This document shows, in pieces, positions 2,647 through 42,491 of a DNA stretch of 44,712 nucleotides. Made by a program: the position numbers and the translations under genes. The stretch's first letter is position 1; each line of letters starts with the position of its first letter. The notes under the pieces were generated by a model. The model had not been told where the DNA came from, did no database searches, and saw nothing but the letters and a program-made list of their open reading frames with translations. The DNA comes from Escherichia phage vB_Eco_Lzu_P1, in sequence record PQ295795; one strand, 5' to 3'.

Positions 2647-2690
2647 TGCAACCAATATAGCAGGGTGCTGGGGTGGATGCAACCAATATT
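2647..2690 (-). promoter_or_regulatory. Sigma70-like promoter (minus strand) built from two direct copies of the ATATTGGTTGCA motif
   Basis: Minus strand: TTGCAT - 17 nt - TATATT, second motif copy ending about 20 nt before the RBS of the 2626 gene. Confidence 0.5.
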
Positions 2691-2841: not shown

Positions 2842-3012
2842 CAGTCTCAGACGAGGGGGGCCATTGACCCCCGTCTAGTCTGAAAGACTGGGCTTTGTCC
2901 CGCCTGTCCCGCTCCCCTCCAGGCCGCGTCATCTGTGGGCGGGACGGGGTGCTGTCCCGCTTTGTCCCGCCTCCTGTTTGTCCCGCTTTTTGTCCCGCTT
3001 ACTTTATGCAGT
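2842..3012. repeat. Non-coding hairpin plus GTCCCGC iteron element, copy A
   Basis: 2842-2911 identical to 30662-30731 (70 bp); imperfect hairpin AGACGAGGGGGG-ccattga-CCCCCGTCT; at least six direct TGTCCCGC units plus one inverted; ends with TTTATGCAG as in copy B. Confidence 0.85.
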
Positions 3013-3104
3013 TTTATTGCATAACTATGCATTATATTCACACTACACGGCAACCAATGTGACCAGATAAAAACGCTCAAAATGGAAACCAATGCGCGCA
3101 AAAT

Positions 3105-5369
3105 TTAATCGTTCAGGTCGTCATCGGTCGCCGAAAGCGTGATGGGGATATCCGATTTGATGACTAAATTCGACGACCCATATATGGCCCCGGTGTGCGG
3201 ATCTGTATAGAAACCGATCACGCCGCGCTCAACCATATCGTCGATTGCCTTCGTCGAAGTGCCCCCCTTCGCGAGTCCTGCCTGGCGGACTATTGCCGAT
3301 TTACTGAAACCAGTATGGTCCGGGTTATCTTCCATCAGTTTTTCCAGGGCCGCGTAAAGTACCTTTTCTTTTTCGGTGCGCGGTCCGGCGGTGTTCTCAT
3401 CCTTAACTGCGGCTTTTCCTGCGGCCTTCGCCTGTTCTATAGCGAACGGTGCCAGGGCGACCGGTACGAGGTATAAAGTCTCGTCGCGCGGGGTGGACGC
3501 AATTGGTTTGACGTCCCAACCAGCAACTACGTCACCGAAGTCTGGCCCGGTGCTGGTGGACTGGTGCGACGCGAACGCTTCTGACTTGCGGAGATCTACC
3601 GCCACCTTGCACTTGAGCAGGACGAAGCCACGCGGCGCTTGCTTGATGCCGTTACGTGACTTTTCGTGATACAGGTTAAGTTGTCCCGGCTGGTTGTCGT
3701 CCGGCTGTTCCAGGAAGAAAGCTGAATCGACAGCGCCATGCAGTGCGCCGGATCCGCGTGGGGTTCTGCTGCCGTTTGCACCCTTCGCCGGGTGGTGGAT
3801 GACGCCCGCACTGCCACCTGTGTTTTCCGCAATGGCCTTCAGCGCTTTGACCACTTCACCCATATCGCTGGCGTTGTTCTCGTCAAACGGTTTAGCATCG
3901 GCGGACCGCAGCGCAACAGTCTGGTTGAGTGAGTCGAACGCCACCAGGCCAACAGGTTCGCCGTTAGCGGTGCGGTTGATAAAGCTGATAACTTCGCGCA
4001 AACCGGACTTGCTGGTGATATCCCAGCCGCGAGACTGCAGGTCGATAATGTGCAGCTTGTCCAGGTCGTGCTCGTATTTAATCTGCAATGCTTCTTTGCG
4101 CTGGTTGGAGGCTTCGCCGCCTTCCGCGTCGAAATAGAAGCAATGAGACTGGACGACCTTCGCACCGCCAAACGGGATACCCGCGGCAACCGCGCCCATT
4201 TGGCCCAGCACATAGAAAGACTTACCGATATTCGACTCACCAGCCATATACCAGGTTGATTTAAAGTTAATCAACCCCTCGATTATCGGGTCGTGCTTGC
4301 TGAACAGTGCGACCGGCTCGTTATCCAGATCCGCATCGGTGCACACGCCGTATTCTTCGCCGTCGCCAACCGCATCAACAATATGATCATATAAGGATTC
4401 TACTTCCTCGTCGTCCAGACCTGGCAGGATGGCGGCGATTTGCTTACGTGACATGTTGTGCGGCTCGACGTTCAGGTGGTCCGGTATCCCGATAAGACGT
4501 AGCGCCAGGTGCTGGTGTCTATTTAGCTCAGAGCAACACTCGTTGCCGGTGTGCATACACTTGAAACGGATCTCGCCATCCTTGACCATGATAGCCGTCG
4601 ACCCTTCGCCGCTGTGCAGATGTTCGTTCGGGCACGGCACTTCATAACCGCGACCGGAAGATAACTCCTCGAATCCTGCCTGGAAGCACCAGTCCAGAAT
4701 GCCGTCAGCCACTGCGTCGTCGCCCTGGGTAAGCTCACGGCGTACTTCCTCTTTCTCCACTCCCAGCTTGTCAGCCAGGCGAAGCAGACGACGCACACTG
4801 GCGCGCTTGCCGTAGTGACACTTAATAACAGACTGCTGGTGTGGTAGGTACATAAGACGGTTTGTGTCTTTCGTGCAGTCGTCGAAGTCCACATCAGACA
4901 GGCCCAGTTGGTCTAACAGCGCGTACTGGACGCGGCCCAGGTCTTCCGCCGGTACTGGTTTATCTGTGAGCACAAGGAAACGGGCGCAACGCGTGCCGCC
5001 TTTCAGCGGGTGGCGGTCGCCGGTGGTTGTGTGGAATACGTGCTCCAGCCCCGCGTCGATAAAAGCCTTACGGCAGCGGCGTAGGGTGCGAGTGTCGGTG
5101 CGGTCAATATCAAAGAACAGGATCGAGCGGTCCACCGCACTGGTCTTGCGGCGTAGGCCGTCACTGGTATATGCCACGATGCCATCGGCCTTACGCTTGC
5201 GGCGCGCATACTCGGCTTTATCTTCCGTCTTGTTGATATGCACCGAGGAGATTTCTTTCGCGTCATTGATAAATTCGAAAAATTCATCGGTGGTCATCTG
5301 GAAGTTTTCCGCCCTGGCTTTTTCGCCTTTTTTAGCGGGTCGTGTTACCGCGAATTTAATTAAGCTCAT
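3105..5369 (-). CDS. DNA primase-helicase (N-terminal primase-polymerase-like domain, RecA/DnaB-like ATPase with Walker A GESNIGKS)
   Basis: 754-aa ORF; Walker A GESNIGKS, cysteine/histidine cluster CPNEHLH...CMHTGNECC, acidic FFDIDRTD motif typical of primase-polymerase domains. Confidence 0.7.
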   Translation of the reverse strand: MSLIKFAVTRPAKKGEKARAENFQMTTDEFFEFINDAKEISSVHINKTEDKAEYARRKRKADGIVAYTSDGLRRKTSAVDRSILFFDIDRTDTRTLRRCRKAFIDAGLEHVFHTTTGDRHPLKGGTRCARFLVLTDKPVPAEDLGRVQYALLDQLGLSDVDFDDCTKDTNRLMYLPHQQSVIKCHYGKRASVRRLLRLADKLGVEKEEVRRELTQGDDAVADGILDWCFQAGFEELSSGRGYEVPCPNEHLHSGEGSTAIMVKDGEIRFKCMHTGNECCSELNRHQHLALRLIGIPDHLNVEPHNMSRKQIAAILPGLDDEEVESLYDHIVDAVGDGEEYGVCTDADLDNEPVALFSKHDPIIEGLINFKSTWYMAGESNIGKSFYVLGQMGAVAAGIPFGGAKVVQSHCFYFDAEGGEASNQRKEALQIKYEHDLDKLHIIDLQSRGWDITSKSGLREVISFINRTANGEPVGLVAFDSLNQTVALRSADAKPFDENNASDMGEVVKALKAIAENTGGSAGVIHHPAKGANGSRTPRGSGALHGAVDSAFFLEQPDDNQPGQLNLYHEKSRNGIKQAPRGFVLLKCKVAVDLRKSEAFASHQSTSTGPDFGDVVAGWDVKPIASTPRDETLYLVPVALAPFAIEQAKAAGKAAVKDENTAGPRTEKEKVLYAALEKLMEDNPDHTGFSKSAIVRQAGLAKGGTSTKAIDDMVERGVIGFYTDPHTGAIYGSSNLVIKSDIPITLSATDDDLND

Positions 5370-5379
5370 TGCCGTTGCC

Positions 5380-5709
5380 TTACTTCGAAGTTTTATTATT
5401 GCGTACCCAGGAGCGCACGGTGCTCTGATTAATTCCTGTCAACTCAGCGATCATTGCCCAGGATTTGCCCTCGGCGCGCAAACGGATAACCTGTTTTTTG
5501 TATTCTTCCATTTCGTCATTGTGCTTTTGCAGCTTGCTTGCTGCCGTGCCGTTGAGTAATTCCAGCTTCGCGGTAAGCTCCTTCTCAGCACGCGATAATC
5601 TGGACACTTCAAATAACAGAGTATCCACCGCATTTGTGTAATACCAGGATTTACCCGCTTCGCCGCGGATTGCATTAGATAACACTTCAATTGCTTCTTT
5701 GATATTCAT
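5380..5709 (-). CDS. Helix-turn-helix DNA-binding protein (putative transcription regulator)
   Basis: C-terminal GKSWAMIAELTGINQSTVRSWVRN is a classic HTH; first gene of the minus-strand block next to the divergent promoter region. Confidence 0.55.
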   Translation of the reverse strand: MNIKEAIEVLSNAIRGEAGKSWYYTNAVDTLLFEVSRLSRAEKELTAKLELLNGTAASKLQKHNDEMEEYKKQVIRLRAEGKSWAMIAELTGINQSTVRSWVRNNKTSK

Positions 5710-6110: not shown

Positions 6111-6650
6111 ATGTTTGAGCAAATCGTAAACCTGATCACTCGCGGCGTAGTAGCCCTGGAAATCATCGCTAAGCATTATGAAACCGTTGGCGCTGCCGTA
6201 GACCCAAAAGCAAACGGCACCGCTAAGAAAGGCAAGGCCAAGCCGGAGAACGAAGTCGAAGACGACGATCAGGACGAAGTCGAAGATACGCCCAAAGCGA
6301 AAAAAGGCGCGGCAAAAGAAACCAAGTCTAAAGGTAAGGCCAAAAAAGAAGTCGTAGAGGATGACGACGAGGATGAAGCCGAAGACGAAAAACCGGCTAA
6401 AACCAAAAAAGCACCAGCGAAAGGCAAAGGTAAGAAAGATGCCGATCCGCTGGCAGAGATGCGCGACGAAATCAAACAGTATGCCGCGATTATCGCAGGC
6501 GGTGATGACGACGATGCGAACGACGAATTCGACGACCTGCTGGAATCGTTCGAGATCAAATCAATCGCTAAACTGGAAGACGACGACGTGGAAGACTTCC
6601 ACAAAGACCTGAAAGAAATCGTCGAAACTTATTTCGAACTGGAAGATTAA
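6111..6650 (+). CDS. Highly charged low-complexity protein (alternating acidic and lysine-rich blocks), first early gene
   Basis: ATG at 6111 with GGAGAT RBS; 179 aa with runs such as EDDDQDEVED, KAKKGAAKETKSKGKAKK, GGDDDDANDEFDD; ORF track 5883..6650 includes an upstream extension without RBS. Confidence 0.6.
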   Translation: MFEQIVNLITRGVVALEIIAKHYETVGAAVDPKANGTAKKGKAKPENEVEDDDQDEVEDTPKAKKGAAKETKSKGKAKKEVVEDDDEDEAEDEKPAKTKKAPAKGKGKKDADPLAEMRDEIKQYAAIIAGGDDDDANDEFDDLLESFEIKSIAKLEDDDVEDFHKDLKEIVETYFELED

Positions 6651-6656
6651 TATTAT

Positions 6657-6686
6657 CCGGCCCGCAGATTAGCGGGCCTCTTTTTA
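6657..6686 (+). terminator. Intrinsic terminator
   Basis: GGCCCGC-agatta-GCGGGCC followed by TCTTTTT. Confidence 0.6.
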
Positions 6687-6698
6687 GAGGACGAGACA

Positions 6699-6950
6699 AT
6701 GGCACGCTTCACGCTAATAGAGGCGGTGGATTCCCGCGACCAGCGCCCATATTATTGGCTATTCGAACGCATCGGCAGCTTTCAATCACGCGTTGCCGTA
6801 ATTGATAAACGCCGCACTACACCCGCGCAAATTAAGCGCACCACCTTTACCAATCCAGACTTTTATATTTGGGCTGACTCCAATCTGGAATATGTTCGCT
6901 TCGCCGTTGCATCCGAAGCAAAAACAATTGACCGCTGGGAGACAAAATAA
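6699..6950 (+). CDS. Hypothetical protein (83 aa)
   Basis: ORF track; GAGGA RBS. Confidence 0.5.
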   Translation: MARFTLIEAVDSRDQRPYYWLFERIGSFQSRVAVIDKRRTTPAQIKRTTFTNPDFYIWADSNLEYVRFAVASEAKTIDRWETK

Positions 6951-27949: not shown

Positions 27950-30591
27950 TCATCGTTTGTAAAGTACACCACCCGGTTTCGTCGCCTTCACGATCTCGGC
28001 CTTCACCGCCTCGGTGATTTGCTTGCCGAACGCCTGCGCGGTACGTGGGTCCGGCCCGCCAACACTGGTATCCGTCTTACCGGTCCCCGTGTAAACGTTA
28101 GTCGTCACGACCATACCACCGCCTGCGCCAGACGCGGCAACGCCCAGTTTCCCGTCCGGCCCGCGCTTCAGTGGCATGATGGCCTCGGGTCCAGCCTCAC
28201 CCATCAACCCAGCGCCCTTAGCGAACGCCTGGACGCCATAACTGAAAAAGGTAGGCTGGCTTACCACTTTCCCCGAATAGGCCGCGAGATTGCCTCCTGC
28301 GTACGCTCCGCCGTCCGCATTCTTAGTAAGGCCAGAGAAGATAGCGCCGAACAATCCGTTTTTGCCGCCGTCACCACCGAAAGCGCTAACGATGGACTTG
28401 AACGCCTGCGAGGTAGCCAGCTTGATTAATTCGCTCAGGATGGACTTAACCATATCCTTTGCGTTCAGCTTGCCAGTCTCGAAAAACTCGTTCATCGTGT
28501 CCTGCATAGCGCTGAATGTGAATTTCGTGAGAGACGCCATCTGCGTATATCCGTTACCCATCTCATCCACGCTATCCTTAAGCCCGCGACTGAATCCATC
28601 CCATAACGAGGCGTTAGCGCCGGTCTGTGCCTCCTGCACTTCTCGCAGCTTAGACACCGCCTTGTCAATATCGGTATCGTTAGCGCCAACCCGCTTCAGG
28701 CGGTCAATTAGCTGCAATTCTTCGCGCAGGTTTGCCGCTTCGCGAGTGGAAAGCGCATAGCCCGCGGCGGTGGCTTTTAGTTCGGCGTTCTGGTTCTTAA
28801 CGAAGGCATCGATCTGCGCGTGCGCCTTAACCTGCCTCTCTTTCGCGTCCAGCAATTTGGCTTCTTCGACGATCTGCTCGCGCACTTCCTTCACGCGTCC
28901 AAATTCCACCATCTGCTGCTTTTCGGCTGCCGTTAGCGCTCTTTCTTTGCTCGCAGCGATTAACTGCTCATTGTCGGCGATCAGCTTGTTTAGGGCCGCT
29001 TGAGCGCGTTGCGTGCGGGTCTGCGTCGATGCGTTGGCTTCGATCTGTTTGCCGGATTCTCGAAGCTGGGCCAGTTCGCTCCGTGCGACTTCCAGCATTT
29101 TCATACCGGCATCCACGCGAACAGCCGCGGCCTTCTTCGGGGCCGGGTCTTTGTAACGCTCGTTTACCTGCTTAACTGCCTCAGCAAGCTCTTTCTCATC
29201 AATAACGCCGCGCTTATTCAGCAAATTGAGGCGGGCGATCTCGTCGGCGCGCTTCTTCGCGTTAGTTGCGTACTCCTTCTCGAACGCGGCGCGGTCGCGA
29301 GCGGTGCGGTTGGCCTCCTCGTTCGCCTTTGCTGATTCGTCCGCGGCGCGGGCGTTGTCTCGCTCCGCACGGTTACGCAGGGTGAGCGACGCCACTACTT
29401 TTTCCTGGGCGACCAGTTCGCTGTAAAGCATGTTAATACGTGCTTTCTGCGCTTCAGTCATTACCCCACCGGCAGCGTTAACCGCTTTCATCTCGGCATA
29501 GTAAGCCGTAGTCATGCGCTGCAGTGATTCGCGCGCTTTCATCTCCGACTCATTGGAGGACTGCGCGCGGCCCACATCCAGGATAGCGTCCCACATAGAT
29601 TTAGCCGCCGATGTGACGACGTTCATCGACCGCTCAAGCGTGCCCATGTTCGCCTTGATATCGTTGGTCATAGTGGTGAACGATGCCGCGGCGGTTTTGT
29701 TCGCCAGCGCAACTGCGTCTGTCTCACGACCCATATCCACAAGCGACTGCACCTGCTGGATCTGCGCTTCGTTTACGACGTGATACTTATCTGCCAGTGC
29801 GCGCAAACCGCCTACGGGGTCAGTTGACAGCTTCGCCACCGCCGCGACCACATCTTCGACCGGCTGGCTGGACACCTTAGAGAAGTCATTAACCACCTTC
29901 GCCAGTGCACCGAAGTCAGCACCCGCCTTCACACCCGCCGCCGCCAGTGACTGAATTGTGTCACGCGTCTTGCGGAATGATCCGCCCATCCTCTCGGCGT
30001 TCTCGGATAGCACCAGGATCTGGTTAGCGGTGAGGCCAGAAATATTACCGGACAGCGCCAGCGTCTTGTTAAGCGCCGCCACTTGGTTTTCCGCGCGGGA
30101 CATAATCGACACGCCAACGCCCATCGTTGCCGTTAATGCAGCGATGCCGATCCCTAACGGGCCGAGTGTGCCGACGACATAACGCAGCGTATTCCCCAAC
30201 CCGCCAAACGCCCCAGTAAGCTGTGGTAACTGCTGAAGCATGACTCGATGCACCGGCATACCCATTTCAAGCGTCACCGCGATATCCTGTAACTGGAATG
30301 CGGCGTTCCGCGATGCGAATCCCAGGTTTTTGGTCGACATGCCTAATCGGCTGGCGAGTCGCTCCTGTTTCGTCATGCCGTCGGCGGCGCGCTGCGATTC
30401 AGTCGCTAACTTTTCCATTCCGCCCGCGGCGTCACCAGTGACCTTTTTCGACTTGCCGAGTGTGTCGTTTAATTTCTTTACTTTCTGTTCTGTGTTCTCG
30501 GATTTCTGCGCAAATGTGTCCAGCACAGTATTGGCCGTTTTAATTTGCGCGACGTCCGCCTTGAGCGTGATGCCCGCAGCCTGATCTGCCA
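27950..30591 (-). CDS. Tail tape measure protein
   Basis: 880 aa, long alpha-helical/Ala-Gln-rich stretches, downstream of the G/GT chaperone; start at ATG 30591 (AAAGGGGGGA RBS) rather than the track start 30631. Confidence 0.8.
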
Positions 30592-30661
30592 TTATGCAGT
30601 CCCCCCTTTTTATGCAGTTGCCGTCGGTCATTGTATCAGCGAATTTAAAACAAACCTTATT

Positions 30662-30975
30662 CAGTCTCAGACGAGGGGGGCCATTGACCCCCGTCTAGTC
30701 TGAAAGACTGGGCTTTGTCCCGCCTGTCCCGATCGGCTAAAACCCACGGCAGCACTGACGGGGACAGGGGTGCTGTCCCGCTTTGTCCCGCCTCATTCTG
30801 TCCCGCTTTCTGTCCCGTTTGTTTTATGCAGAAAAACCGCATAGCTATTCACTTTTAAGGGGCGGGACAGATCGGGACATCACCCCGTCCCGCTTTTAGT
30901 TTATGCAATGAAAGTGAGTATATATGCTGTTTAATGGTGGCGGGACAAAACGGGACGTCCCGCCTGTCCCGCTTC
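30662..30975. repeat. Non-coding hairpin plus GTCCCGC iteron element, copy B, with extra iteron cluster
   Basis: 30662-30731 identical to 2842-2911; about nine direct and several inverted (G)TCCCGC units; inserted between the GT chaperone stop and the tape-measure start. Confidence 0.85.
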
Positions 30976-30976
30976 G

Positions 30977-31653
30977 TTATGCGGGGTTCTGCCGCGCCAT
31001 TTCATCCAGCGCAACGCGTTCCATTAGCTTGATATCTTTAAACGCACGTTGCGCGTTTTCGATGCCGTGCATCTTAAATAACCATTCCAGTACGCCGTAG
31101 TCTATGCCGTATGCCCCGCCAAATCCGGTACGCCATTGCGTGGAGCAATCTGTGAAGACTGCGACTACCTTCGCGTTGTCGGGCCACAGCGCAACTGGTG
31201 GACACACGTCTTCAGGTGTCGCGCCCCATAAACTCGCGGCTAAATCTTCGGAGGGTGGCGGCGGGCCATAAAAGCGCCGCGCCGCCTCAATTAGTTTTTT
31301 TCACGCAACCCCATCAATTCGAGGTAGTACGACGTATGGAACACGCCGAACGCGCGCGGGTAGTTGACTACCAGGCGGCGGACGTTGGCGGCATTAAATT
31401 CGTCCGGCAAATTCCAGCCTTCAGCGACGTGCATGATGGCCTCGACCATAACGTTAAATCCTTCCGGGTCATTGTCGTCATACTCCGACAATTTGCGCTC
31501 AGTGTCCTGCATGGTCTGCGAAAATTCGTCGATAGGGCGGTGGCGCACGGTAAACGTCATTTTGCCCGGTTCGTTCTCACCAGGGCGCGGGATCTCAATC
31601 GGCAGCTTAAAGGTTGGTTTAGGGTCAAGTGTGAAGAGTGGTGCTTTAGCCAT
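30977..31653 (-). CDS. Tail assembly chaperone G-T fusion product (requires -1 ribosomal frameshift near 31294-31302)
   Basis: The -1 frame is open from the slippery site to 30977; downstream ORF lacks its own start context. Confidence 0.6.
31291..31653 (-). CDS. Tail assembly chaperone G
   Basis: ATG at 31653 with GGAGAA RBS; position between major tail and tape measure; ends in the slippery sequence. Confidence 0.65.
   Translation of the reverse strand: MAKAPLFTLDPKPTFKLPIEIPRPGENEPGKMTFTVRHRPIDEFSQTMQDTERKLSEYDDNDPEGFNVMVEAIMHVAEGWNLPDEFNAANVRRLVVNYPRAFGVFHTSYYLELMGLREKN
31294..31302 (-). other. Programmed -1 frameshift slippery site G-AAA-AAA-C
   Basis: Minus strand CGT GAA AAA AAC TAA at the end of G; A-AAA-AAC heptamer. 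Confidence 0.6.
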
Positions 31654-31663
31654 TGTAGTATTC

Positions 31664-31691
31664 TCCAATAAAAAGGGGCCAGTACGGCCCC
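31664..31691 (-). terminator. Intrinsic terminator after the major tail gene
   Basis: Minus strand GGGGCC-gtact-GGCCCC followed by TTTTTATT. Confidence 0.55.
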
Positions 31692-31721
31692 ATATTAACA
31701 CCCGCTATTTAAGCGACCAAA

Positions 31722-40424: not shown

Positions 40425-41810
40425 TTAGTAGAAGTCTACGGTTGGAACAACGGCGATCGGTCGAATCACAGGGAACAAGTGCGCAATAGGGTAGCCCGCC
40501 GCGTCATTCATGTGGTCCACACCGGCTGTTTTATCCGGTTCGCCTTTCTTCAGGTCGTACACCTGCTGTTCCAGACATTTCGCTAGTGTAGGGCATTTAT
40601 CCAGGTTGACAAAATACTGGCGCACGCCCTTCGAGTTGCACATCATCGTATTCATCGCGATAAGTCTGTCTTTCACTGGCGGGTTAACGCTGTCATATTC
40701 CACATCGAAGCCCGCGTCTTCCAGTTGCGCGATATCGGACGACGACGCGTTGACCGTCTTGCGGGATTTGCCACTGCTATCCGGGTAAACGACGACCCTA
40801 CCGGCGGCACAATGATCGGGGTAGCGCTCCTCGATCGCCTCAATCATCGCCGGGGTGTCGAACAGGTCCACGAATTCGTCCACCGCGTGGATCTCGTCGC
40901 GGAACTCCTTGTTCTCGGTGACTCGCTGCCGCCTGACGTACACAACCGCCGCCATCTTAGTGACGTTAAAGTCCATACCGATAATCAGCGTGTCTTCCGG
41001 CTGCACTTCTTCGGTGCTGGCGTTCTCCTCGCGGTTGAACATCTTGTACACCGCGCCCGACGTAAGGTTAACAAACAGGCCGTTCAGGTACGCGTCGATC
41101 AGGTTAGCTGGGTATTGACTACGCAGCGTGTCGATAAAGTCTGCCGGTAAATGGTGGTTGTCCGTGGTCTTCGCCCGGATCAAGCGTTTTTGGTTATCCT
41201 TCTCCACCTCGAAAATTTGGTACATCGCCCGGTAGCCTTCAGGCGTTGACACGATGACGAACTGGCGGACGAAGCCCGCACGCAGACGACCGAGCAATTT
41301 GTGATATGCCGCCAGCGCGACGTCTTGCTTCGTAGTGTCGAATTCATCTGCAACAATCCACGCGGCGTTGACCCCGATCAGGCGGGTATAGTTCTCCATT
41401 GATTCACAGATAACGCGTGTCCATTTCCCTTTCACCAGCACGTTATAGATCTTGTCCTGCTTATTGAACTTCCACCGGAAGCCCGCCTCGTCAAACGCCT
41501 TTTCCAATTCCGGGTACATGATTTTGACCAGGAGGGGAATAGTCGGTTCTGTAACGATACCGTCATGACCGGGGTTCAGGGTTAAAAGCTGGATGACCTT
41601 ACGCGCAGCGACCCACGACTTTCCACCACCGAAGCCGGAACACAGGCCGAGGATTTTAGTCTTCGTGTCGCGCAGTAGTTCAACCTGGTGCGGCAAGCAA
41701 TCAGGCTGGTAAAGGCGGACGGCCTGCGCAACGCGTGTTGGGCGTGGCGGTCGGTTGCGCTTTGCGATCGCGCGTTCCAGTGCGCGGTGTTCTGCCGCAT
41801 AGTTACGCAT
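40425..41810 (-). CDS. terL: Terminase large subunit
   Basis: Walker A GFGGGKS, Walker B IVADEFD, C-terminal nuclease-type acidic residues; 461 aa. Confidence 0.85.
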   Translation of the reverse strand: MRNYAAEHRALERAIAKRNRPPRPTRVAQAVRLYQPDCLPHQVELLRDTKTKILGLCSGFGGGKSWVAARKVIQLLTLNPGHDGIVTEPTIPLLVKIMYPELEKAFDEAGFRWKFNKQDKIYNVLVKGKWTRVICESMENYTRLIGVNAAWIVADEFDTTKQDVALAAYHKLLGRLRAGFVRQFVIVSTPEGYRAMYQIFEVEKDNQKRLIRAKTTDNHHLPADFIDTLRSQYPANLIDAYLNGLFVNLTSGAVYKMFNREENASTEEVQPEDTLIIGMDFNVTKMAAVVYVRRQRVTENKEFRDEIHAVDEFVDLFDTPAMIEAIEERYPDHCAAGRVVVYPDSSGKSRKTVNASSSDIAQLEDAGFDVEYDSVNPPVKDRLIAMNTMMCNSKGVRQYFVNLDKCPTLAKCLEQQVYDLKKGEPDKTAGVDHMNDAAGYPIAHLFPVIRPIAVVPTVDFY

Positions 41811-42361
41811 TATTCACCCTGGCCTTTGCCGGAAGGTTCGACAACGACGTCGCCGTTATCATCTTCGTCGTCATCCAGAGGCACATCGTCGCGGACGCCG
41901 TGGTTTGCTTTAAGCAGGAATGTTGCGAAGCCCGCCGCGATGGTCACGCCGCCAGCTTCCATCAGGAAGGTTTTTTGTAACTCCATAGCGTCAGCCATCG
42001 CCTCAGCGAACTCCTCATGCGCACGCGCCCAGCGATACAGGCAAGCTACGCCCACGCCGATTTCCGCGGCAAATCGACCGAAGGTTGGCATTTTGTTGCG
42101 GGGGATTACTTGCGCCGCGCCTTTATCGGAGTAGTTTACCTGCCAGGCGTCGGCGTCGGCAAAATAGCGGCGAAGCTGGTCGCAGTAAACTGTGCGGTAG
42201 TCGGTCGGGCGCCCACATTTGCCGCCTTTACGGCGTTTGCCGTACTCGATTTCCGGTCCGAGATTGGTATGTTCTGTTTGCTCGCCTGGTTTACGGCGCG
42301 GGGTTACTGCCACTCGTCCGTCCAGTTTGGCGCGTCGGCCCTTAACTTTGATTTCTGCCAT
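41810..42361 (-). CDS. Terminase small subunit (putative)
   Basis: 183-aa basic N-terminus and acidic C-terminus, immediately upstream of terL with overlapping stop/start; ATG 42361 with AAAGGG RBS. Confidence 0.5.
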   Translation of the reverse strand: MAEIKVKGRRAKLDGRVAVTPRRKPGEQTEHTNLGPEIEYGKRRKGGKCGRPTDYRTVYCDQLRRYFADADAWQVNYSDKGAAQVIPRNKMPTFGRFAAEIGVGVACLYRWARAHEEFAEAMADAMELQKTFLMEAGGVTIAAGFATFLLKANHGVRDDVPLDDDEDDNGDVVVEPSGKGQGE

Positions 42362-42491
42362 GATATAAGCCCTTTTGTTCATATGCGCCGACCATCGGCA
42401 ACATAGGAGACGGCCCTGCCATCTAACGGGGATTATAACAGGCACAAAAAAGCCCACCAAATCGGCAGGCTGGGAGGGGTACGGGTTGCCG

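Follow-up and report, generated by a model that had tools for sequence, protein, structure and literature searches.

A repeat-and-hairpin module of Dhillonvirus phages, duplicated into the tail operon, as a candidate replicator

What lies between the tail assembly chaperone and tape-measure genes of Escherichia phage vB_Eco_Lzu_P1 (PQ295795)? The 44,712-bp window, by which we mean the whole stretch of DNA analysed, is the complete genome of a virulent, HK578/SO-1-like coliphage, a Dhillonvirus, and at this junction it carries a non-coding block ('copy 1') of short repeats, AT-rich DNA and a hairpin. A related module ('copy 2') stands right after the helicase-primase gene, in the ancestral position. 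The reading that we favour, with confidence that is evenly balanced, is that the block is a duplicated replicator module, either an iteron-type origin or a cis-acting replication site. Such an element would be ordinary in kind but unusual in its location. An iteron-type origin was one of four roles suggested in an original prediction for this DNA, and it is the one that now seems best placed. The second copy right after the helicase-primase gene, its ancestral status and a tape-measure promoter within the block were absent from that prediction, and literature searches covering Dhillonvirus, the repeat strings and P4 terms yielded no prior description of the element.

Extent of the non-coding block

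The junction is organized as follows, in window coordinates.

31291–31701, minus strand: tail assembly chaperone (Phage_TAC_4)
30977–31207, minus strand: tail-assembly-chaperone T-extension open reading frame (T ORF; DUF1799)
30593–30976, minus strand: whole non-coding block, copy 1, 384 bp, between the T ORF and the tape-measure gene
30590–30611, minus strand: tape-measure ribosome-binding region, with two ACTGCATAA motifs flanking the Shine–Dalgarno (SD) sequence AGGGGGG and the ATG (30592–30590)
27950–30592, minus strand: tape-measure protein gene, 880 aa, a length also annotated in GenBank relatives

A non-coding insertion had been predicted here, with an extent of 345 bp (30632–30976). 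The insertion is real but its extent was underestimated. The SD sequence and the ATG at 30592 are invariant among relatives, whereas the ATG at 30631, the start given in the ORF list, is ATA in several of them; the tape-measure gene therefore starts at 30592, and the gap spans 30593–30976. The ORF listed within it (30657..30842) was rightly suspected to be spurious, because single-base indels run through the region in relatives. Most GenBank records annotate no gene at the block, and the sole annotation that came to light is a 44-bp 'repeat_region', given without explanation, in phage 'rolling'. The functional orientation of copy 1 is that of the minus-strand genes around it. As had been expected of related phages, the T ORF directly adjoins the tape-measure gene in the more distant L055, L144 and Salmonella phage vB_SenTO17 (names of the form L055 denote sequences compared with the window), which also lack the second repeat cluster.

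Repeat array and hairpin of copy 1

The hexamer GTCCCG occurs in the block nine times on the plus strand (30717, 30726, 30775, 30785, 30800, 30812, 30887, 30957 and 30966) and four times inverted (30863, 30873, 30941 and 30951), bearing out the at least nine direct and several inverted copies first counted. These 13 sites, from a genome total of 32, fall within 255 bp (30717–30971), where 0.18 would be expected (Poisson P = 3e-20). The genome-wide count is no higher than in shuffled sequence; 20 of the 32 sites sit in the two modules, which are also the only places in the genome where a 7-mer recurs at least seven times within 250 bp. Neighbouring sites start 9–16 bp apart. Both arrays have the pattern that marks iteron origins, namely at least three short repeats at about helical-turn spacing and beyond chance, and the adjacent AT-rich segment of such origins is present as well, in boxes of 67–72% A+T against 45% for the genome, two of them in copy 1.

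On the minus strand, in the direction in which its neighbouring genes are read, the block runs 5′ to 3′ from the T-ORF stop codon through the elements below to the SD sequence and tape-measure ATG.

30939–30972, minus strand: repeat cluster A, GCGGGACA and GGCGGGAC, then two inverted GTCCCG sites; cores kept in 15 relatives
30894–30936, minus strand: AT-rich box 1, about 72% A+T, ending in TTGCATAAAC
30861–30893, minus strand: repeat cluster B, one direct and two inverted sites
30821–30852, minus strand: left element GTGAATAGCTATGCGGTTTTTCTGCATAAAAC, 32 bp, AT-rich, homologue of the clade-wide GAATAGTTATGCAGAAAAAGTGAATAGTTAT element
30760–30817, minus strand: repeat cluster C, four direct (G)CGGGACA sites spaced 12, 15 and 10 bp, and one inverted GTCCCC
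30732–30759, minus strand: 28-bp spacer with conserved GCCAGTGCTGCCG
30716–30731, minus strand: repeat pair D, CGGGACA-G-GCGGGACA, 9 bp apart
30662–30710, no strand assigned: 49-nt composite hairpin, with outer CAGTCT/AGACTG, middle CAGAC/GTCTG and inner G6/C6 stems
30617–30664, minus strand: right element ..TGAATAAGG..AAATTCGC..CGACGGCAAC, homologue of the clade-wide TTATTCAT..ATGCAACACGGCAGCA
30630–30638, minus strand: candidate extended −10-type promoter TGATACAAT for the tape-measure and distal tail genes, inside the right element

Two hairpins had been proposed, a GC-rich one (AGACGAGGGGGG/CCCCCGTCT) and a small one (AGTCT-TTC-AGACT). Both are present, as parts of the single composite hairpin at 30662–30710 and not as separate structures; folded as DNA, it has a free energy (ΔG) of −15 kcal/mol and a z-score of −2.6. 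The promoter candidate TGATACAAT is invariant in Dhillonviruses, and its counterpart in L269 is TGCTACAAT.

Two further motifs recur around the modules. The two ACTGCATAA motifs about the tape-measure SD sequence (30590–30611, minus strand) are invariant in all Dhillonviruses, and the same 8-mer also ends the left element and, in copy 2, comes after the hairpin. On the minus strand, five of six CTGCATAA sites fall within the two modules. These ACTGCATAA and CTGCATAA sites could represent another motif for protein binding or an operator that acts on translation; readings of CTGCATAA as a sigma-54 or simple sigma-70 element were rejected by eye, the spacing being wrong.

A second copy beside the helicase-primase gene

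The features around copy 2 are these.

3105–5369, minus strand: helicase-primase gene, 754 aa, with an AAA_25/RepA-like helicase core
3153–3374, minus strand: C-terminal winged-helix domain of the helicase-primase (aa 666–739), proposed to bind the repeats, from an AlphaFold model
2842–3041, minus strand: copy 2, a module of about 200 bp, with hairpin (2842–2890), repeat pair (2896–2911), cluster of four direct and one inverted repeats (2938–2998) and left element (3002–3041)
2654–2682, minus strand: sigma-70-like promoter TTGCAT-N17-TATATT, overlapped by two TTGGTTGC sites, read from the sequence and absent from a stricter scan list

The 70-bp identity noticed at the outset is an exact match of 30662–30731 to 2842–2911, and recognizable homology continues for about 190 bp, to 30852 and 3041. 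From left element to hairpin, order and orientation are the same in the two copies. Copy 2 has seven GTCCCG sites within 101 bp (2897–2997; P = 2e-12). It begins 63 bp past the helicase-primase stop codon, an adjacency that holds clade-wide, and copy 1 lies about 17 kb off; the genome accordingly has what characterizes the ori–crr arrangement of phage P4, two separated clusters of one repeat with one adjoining the initiator gene. The TTGCAT-N17-TATATT sequence would drive the genes downstream of copy 2.

Within the left element of copy 2 lies a 21-bp quasi-palindrome (window 3004–3024; L004 6332–6352) that takes two forms, TTATGCAGTTTTATTGCATAA in L004, L016 and L020 and TTATGCAATAAAACTGCATAA in the window, L018 and L024. 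The forms are exact reverse complements, so the centre between the 7-bp arms has flipped among strains.

Conservation, ancestry and repeat switching

A 601-bp query around the block retrieved 158 phage records at 80–98% identity, almost all from Escherichia or Shigella Dhillonviruses. The block is carried by all 158 of these GenBank records and by 15 of 15 IMG/VR Dhillonviruses, whereas searches of 5,426 E. coli genomes and 72,556 plasmids gave no hit. Across an alignment of 15 Dhillonviruses the CGGGAC cores, the hairpin stems, TGATACAAT and the ribosome-binding region are invariant and the spacers variable. Where hairpin stems change at all, they do so with compensation; the apical loop is hypervariable, and over a dozen forms of it occur.

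The module after the helicase-primase gene spans a wide clade, in which identity of the protein runs from 100% down to about 37%. Its layout there stays the same: the left element GAATAGTTATGCAGAAAAAGTGAATAGTTAT, which hardly varies, is followed by three or four repeats in direct and one or two in inverted orientation, a spacer, two more direct repeats, a GC-cored hairpin and the conserved right element TTATTCAT..ATGCAACACGGCAGCA. By this comparison, copy 2 is the ancestral, widely conserved module and copy 1 its duplicate. The clade hairpins are unrelated in sequence, yet all fold (ΔG −11 to −22 kcal/mol, z −1.8 to −4.8). Compensatory changes include AGACG/CGTCT to GGACG/CGTCC in L140 and GGGGG/CCCCC to GGGTG/CACCC in L060; they are reported case by case, MAFFT having set divergent lineages out of register in the hairpin alignment.

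The repeat itself switches between lineages, in about ten lineage-specific classes: CGGGACA, GTGTGGCA, GTGTGCCA, GGTGCCA, GGGGGAGA, TCCGACA, CGGACAA, AGGGATA, ACTCGCAA and GCTGCCAAC (lineages that we name by their repeat include GTGTGGCA, GTGTGCCA and GCAACCAA). A module at the chaperone/tape-measure junction is also found in sister lineages outside the genus. In L140, whose major tail protein is 73% identical, it follows an inserted reverse-strand gene, and both copies of the contig have CGGGACA. In L269 a canonical terminator comes after the T ORF, and a small reverse gene separates this terminator from a module with GTGTGCCA repeats; the same rare repeat stands after the helicase-primase gene of L061, from the same sequencing sample, and the L061 and L269 hairpins differ in sequence. 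L061 and L269 are likely one genome, in which both copies would then have switched to GTGTGCCA together. A joint switch of specificity with diverged hairpins would be expected if one trans-acting protein reads both arrays and only the fold of the hairpin matters.

The junction is a hotspot of inserted reverse-strand genes (L140 3964–4344, 126 aa; L269 1792–1965, 57 aa; L143 3973–4714, three genes). L269 and L143 both have a canonical terminator after the T ORF, and insertions are always upstream of the module. A scan for the L143 junction string matched only that same contig end. The Jerseyvirus-like L099 has its module in reduced form, made up of AGGGATAAG repeats and hairpins, at a distance of 1.5 kb downstream from the helicase-primase gene and beyond inserted reverse-strand genes; at 5250–5310 it shows the right-element core CACGGCAGCA followed by six tandem TGGCAGCA units.

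Two wider scans bear on the repeat strings outside the clade. An IMG/VR scan for GTGTGGCA-N(1-8)-GTGTGGCA hit at least 120 unrelated loci, with the module's flanking elements in none among the matches listed. Unrelated GC-rich IMG/VR contigs carry (T)GTCCCG(C) arrays in both orientations around a central alternating CA/CG tract (L013 ~6360–6790, L015 ~5180–5590, L017 ~4330–4740, and L039), adjoining large primase/helicase-like genes of another family. Either these viruses have converged on a similar repeat or the likeness is due to chance; the only protein match shared between the window and these contigs was a 26-aa helix-turn-helix (HTH) match to one contig, judged to be generic HTH similarity.

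A candidate repeat-binding domain

Phages of the same hosts differ in their repeats, which argues that the repeats are bound by a phage-encoded, co-evolving factor and makes a host factor unlikely. The helicase-primase is the candidate. It joins an AEP-like primase and a zinc motif to a RepA-like hexameric helicase core, with a winged helix at the C-terminus; Pfam finds AAA_25 only, and there is a weak match to the RepA structure 1g8y. The C-terminus is the most divergent part of the protein, and a protein search with its last 174 aa alone returned no match, whereas the full-length query succeeded. In an AlphaFold model built with 49 homologues, the C-terminal domain, at residues about 666–737, is predicted as helix-helix-helix-beta-hairpin at a predicted local distance difference test score (pLDDT) of 78–88. 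All of its top Foldseek matches are winged-helix DNA binders (MarR, IclR, ScpB, histone H1, Rio2 and the DNA-bound archaeal Orc1), at weak E values of 0.04–0.5.

Each repeat class has a signature at the turn and start of helix 3 of this domain, for example KGG-T(S/N)T for CGGGACA, (A/T)GG-SSTKP for GTGTGGCA, DGG-RRRPA for TCCGACA and GGGN-RRR for CGGACAA. Signatures are kept within a class while the remainder of the domain drifts, a pairing that is suggestive but confounded by shared ancestry.

A second DNA-binding candidate is encoded just upstream of the helicase-primase.

5380–5709: HTH_23/sigma-70-region-4-like protein

The recognition helix of this protein (SWAMIAE-TGIN-STVRSWVRN) hardly differs among four repeat classes, and it has diverged in CHD5UKE2, where the repeat is still CGGGACA. 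Being invariant across four classes and divergent within one, it does not covary with the repeats, and we excluded it as their binder.

The HTH protein has a candidate site of its own. The motif TTGGTTGC occurs 18 times in the window against about 2 expected (1940, 2648, 2679, 2770, 3050, 5899, 8815, 8831, 12446, 15403, 15420, 17075, 17086, 20456, 25912, 36563, 43798 and 43821), often paired at 16–31 bp and overlapping promoter-like sequences such as the one at 2654–2682, and it is common to all examined lineages that encode the HTH_23 protein. Because the distribution of the motif matches that of the protein and the recognition helix is invariant, the two form a candidate operator–regulator pair. 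The CHD5UKE2 helicase-primase (L004 3989–6250) is a mosaic, with its first ~200 residues 40–72% identical to the window protein and the remainder 90–100% identical.

Parallels in known replicons

Several known replicons resemble this arrangement as functional parallels; none is a homologue. In phage P4, the alpha protein binds origin repeats via a C-terminal winged helix, so that primase, helicase and origin-binding domain lie on one polypeptide (PMC4234260, PMC2777425), as they would here, where the domain is predicted. The short repeats are both direct and inverted in both systems. P4 reportedly needs two separated repeat clusters, crr by the alpha gene and ori kilobases off, a result ascribed to Flensburg and Calendar 1987 and Ziegelin and Lanka 1995. 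The differences are considerable: alpha pairs Toprim with a superfamily 3 (SF3) helicase, whereas the present protein pairs an AEP-like primase with an AAA_25/RepA-like helicase, and the helicase-primase did not match P4 alpha in the PDB by single sequence or by profile. The repeat sequences are unlike, the present module adds a conserved hairpin and flanking elements, and it resides in a 44.7-kb lytic phage genome with its second site inside the tail operon.

The archaeal plasmid pRN1 offers a match in position. Its origin is a stem-loop just downstream of the primase-helicase-winged-helix gene ORF904 (PMC4234260, PMC2777425), conserved in structure and not in sequence, as is the hairpin here, and its authors noted similar arrangements in bacteriophages (PMC4234260). 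By contrast, pRN1 has an SF3 helicase and a single stem-loop of ~100 nt without iterons, where the present phage has AAA_25 and iterons.

The IncQ plasmid RSF1010 (RepA/RepB'/RepC) has a helicase of the same Pfam family, AAA_25. Its oriV contains iterons, an AT-rich segment and hairpins that act as primase start sites. Three separate proteins serve it, with a dedicated RepC binding the iterons, whereas the three functions appear fused here; no RepC homologue was seen in the present phage. RSF1010 has been named as a parallel (PMC4234260).

Extra initiator-binding arrays outside the origin proper, as in the iteron plasmids (P1 incC/incA, F and R6K), would correspond to the junction array. Lytic genomes such as T4 and T7 have several origins, promoter-associated and intergenic. 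The T4 and T7 origins differ in being promoter-primed and free of iteron arrays, and these plasmids and phages show no homology to the module.

Proposed mechanism

Building on the observed anatomy, duplication, conservation and repeat switching, we propose the following sequence of events. The helicase-primase would bind the (G)CGGGACA repeats through its winged helix, and many protomers would gather on sites that lie one helical turn apart in both orientations. The AT-rich element may then melt, or the hairpin extrude, or both, giving single-stranded DNA on which the helicase ring could load and the primase start, possibly assisted by host DnaA at DnaA-box-like elements. In an ancestor common to Dhillonvirus and its sister lineages, a second, enlarged copy came to lie at the chaperone/tape-measure junction, where copy 1 would act as a second origin or as a partner site like P4 crr. 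At the distal edge of the block, the extended −10 promoter sequence would drive the tape-measure and distal tail genes. The phased repeats, the adjacent AT-rich DNA, the structure-conserved hairpin, the position by the replication gene and the winged-helix end of the primase-helicase all argue for a role as origin.

Several observations weigh on the other side. GC skew and cumulative skew track the direction of transcription and locate no origin. The DnaA-box reading of the left element, an inference only, compares TGTGAATAT, AGTGAATAG and TGAATAA with TGTGNATAA, and the resemblance extends to only 7–8 of nine positions, in an element that is itself conserved across lineages. Covariation of winged helix and repeat is confounded by phylogeny, the identity of the HTH segment being 0.60–0.70 within a class and 0.40–0.67 between classes. 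The helicase-primases of L090 and L093–L095 have the winged helix with no module right after the gene. That L061 and L269 are one genome is judged from their shared sample, complementary contigs (11.1 and 33.4 kb, 44.5 kb together) and shared rare repeat. Finally, where reverse-strand genes are inserted, the module stays by the downstream promoter and not by the upstream gene (at the junction in L140, L269 and L143, and after the helicase-primase in L099), and each late transcription unit is preceded by one module; both facts fit a transcriptional role equally well.

Alternative explanations

That transcriptional role is the strongest alternative, possible though doubtful in our estimate. The modules would be late-transcription control regions, whose arrays let a lineage-specific phage protein switch on or insulate the promoter downstream of each; the binder could even be the helicase-primase, coupling late expression to replication. 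The earlier suggestion of clustered sites for a phage regulator survives in this form, without the HTH protein. Downstream of each module, and sharing its orientation, is a promoter-like sequence (TGATACAAT for copy 1, TTGCAT-N17-TATATT for copy 2), and the genes downstream of the two modules together amount to the whole lysis, packaging, head and tail set. In L269 and L143, with a terminator and reverse-strand genes preceding the junction module, the tape-measure gene needs a promoter of its own; insertions never separate module from promoter; and a phage in which the T ORF adjoins the tape-measure gene has a single module. What tells against late control is the form of the module. Its arrays of 7–13 sites extend over 100–250 bp and stand 25–170 bp or more upstream of the −10 element, unlike any phage activator sites known to us and typical of origins, and the structure-conserved hairpin and conserved AT-rich flanks have no obvious activation role. 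The ancestral site right after the replication gene and the fusion of the winged helix to a helicase-primase also point to replication, and TTGGTTGC with the invariant HTH protein already looks like the transcriptional operator system of the phage. The origin and late-control readings are compatible, because transcription away from an origin can help melting.

On a further reading, the modules would be replication-coupled late-gene switches, instead of origins or besides being origins: the helicase-primase would assemble through its winged helix on the array upstream of each late transcription unit, and this assembly, or local unwinding caused by it, would license an adjacent promoter of the host RNA polymerase. 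We consider this unlikely. If it were true, late expression would be coupled to replisome assembly, as it is in T4 through the sliding clamp, by a different and undescribed route, and the concerted repeat change at both loci would amount to a combined replication and transcription code.

Quite improbable, in our view, is that the array binds the initiator for another purpose, either to limit or time replication by titration or 'handcuffing', in the manner of P1 incA, or to organize the DNA. Copy 1 has 13 sites to the 7 of copy 2 and is far from the initiator gene, much as P1 incA has more iterons than the P1 origin, and the repeat specificity is the same in both copies. Copy 1 is, however, a complete module, including left element, hairpin and right element, and a strictly lytic phage has little evident need to restrain copy number.

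It is very improbable that the hairpin and inverted repeats make up an RNA-level element, whether non-coding RNA, attenuator or terminator. The minus-strand RNA does fold far better than shuffled sequences (z −6.3), and the hairpin is conserved with compensatory changes, but the low folding energy can be put down to inverted repeats that resemble protein sites, and in relatives indels break the pairing of the inverted repeats while the 6-nt cores are kept. An Rfam search of the block gave no match at the gathering score (best weak match E = 0.11, 23 bits against a threshold of 79). A terminator would call for a hairpin with a T-run on the sense (minus) strand, and none is present; terminator-like sites occur only on the antisense plus strand, derive from the repeats and do not exceed the shuffled count, and the same phages have canonical terminators elsewhere.

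The remaining suggestions, a packaging recognition (pac or cos) site or a small mobile or repeat element, are scarcely credible. A few records or contigs are linearized or broken in the block (UAE_MI-01, EcoIv6a_Kente and the Logan contig L267; GenBank MW862804.1 and L267 at their starts, OX460974.1 at its end), and CTGCATAA-like direct repeats bound the module. The breaks are probably assembly artefacts and not virion termini, because assemblers break at a two-copy repeat. The terminase genes lie 11 kb away at ~40.4–42.5 kb (terS 41810–42460) and encode TerS/TerL of the Sf6/P22-like headful type, and the element occupies only two fixed, ancient loci per genome and is found in no E. coli genome or plasmid searched. 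Headful packaging is reported for the genus (PMC9022532, PMC13348001), and PhageTerm predicted a 10-nt 5′ cos end, ATCTTAAGGG, for Dhillonvirus EE09 (PMC10673088), so the published packaging modes disagree; an exact copy of ATCTTAAGGG is absent from this genome, and no near match lies close to the block.

Discussion

An origin role for the block would be no new principle, since iteron origins beside initiator genes are well known. What is new is, first, the description of such an element for this phage group; second, a conserved three-part architecture served by a fusion of AEP-like primase, RepA-like helicase and winged helix; third, a natural series of switched repeat specificities; and fourth, a conserved second copy inside a tail operon.

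Dhillonviruses are common coliphages in therapy and in studies of defence systems, including the BASEL collection, and we know of no description of their replication origin or gene control. The present analysis supplies a concrete origin candidate and a candidate origin-binding domain. The roughly ten pairs of repeat and winged helix could be used to study the evolution of initiator specificity or to build orthogonal replicons. For annotators, the 'gap' in the tail operon, which probably has a function and causes assembly breaks, is not a space to be filled with hypothetical ORFs. For phage engineering, the chaperone/tape-measure junction is a site that tolerates insertions, provided that the module and its promoter are kept.

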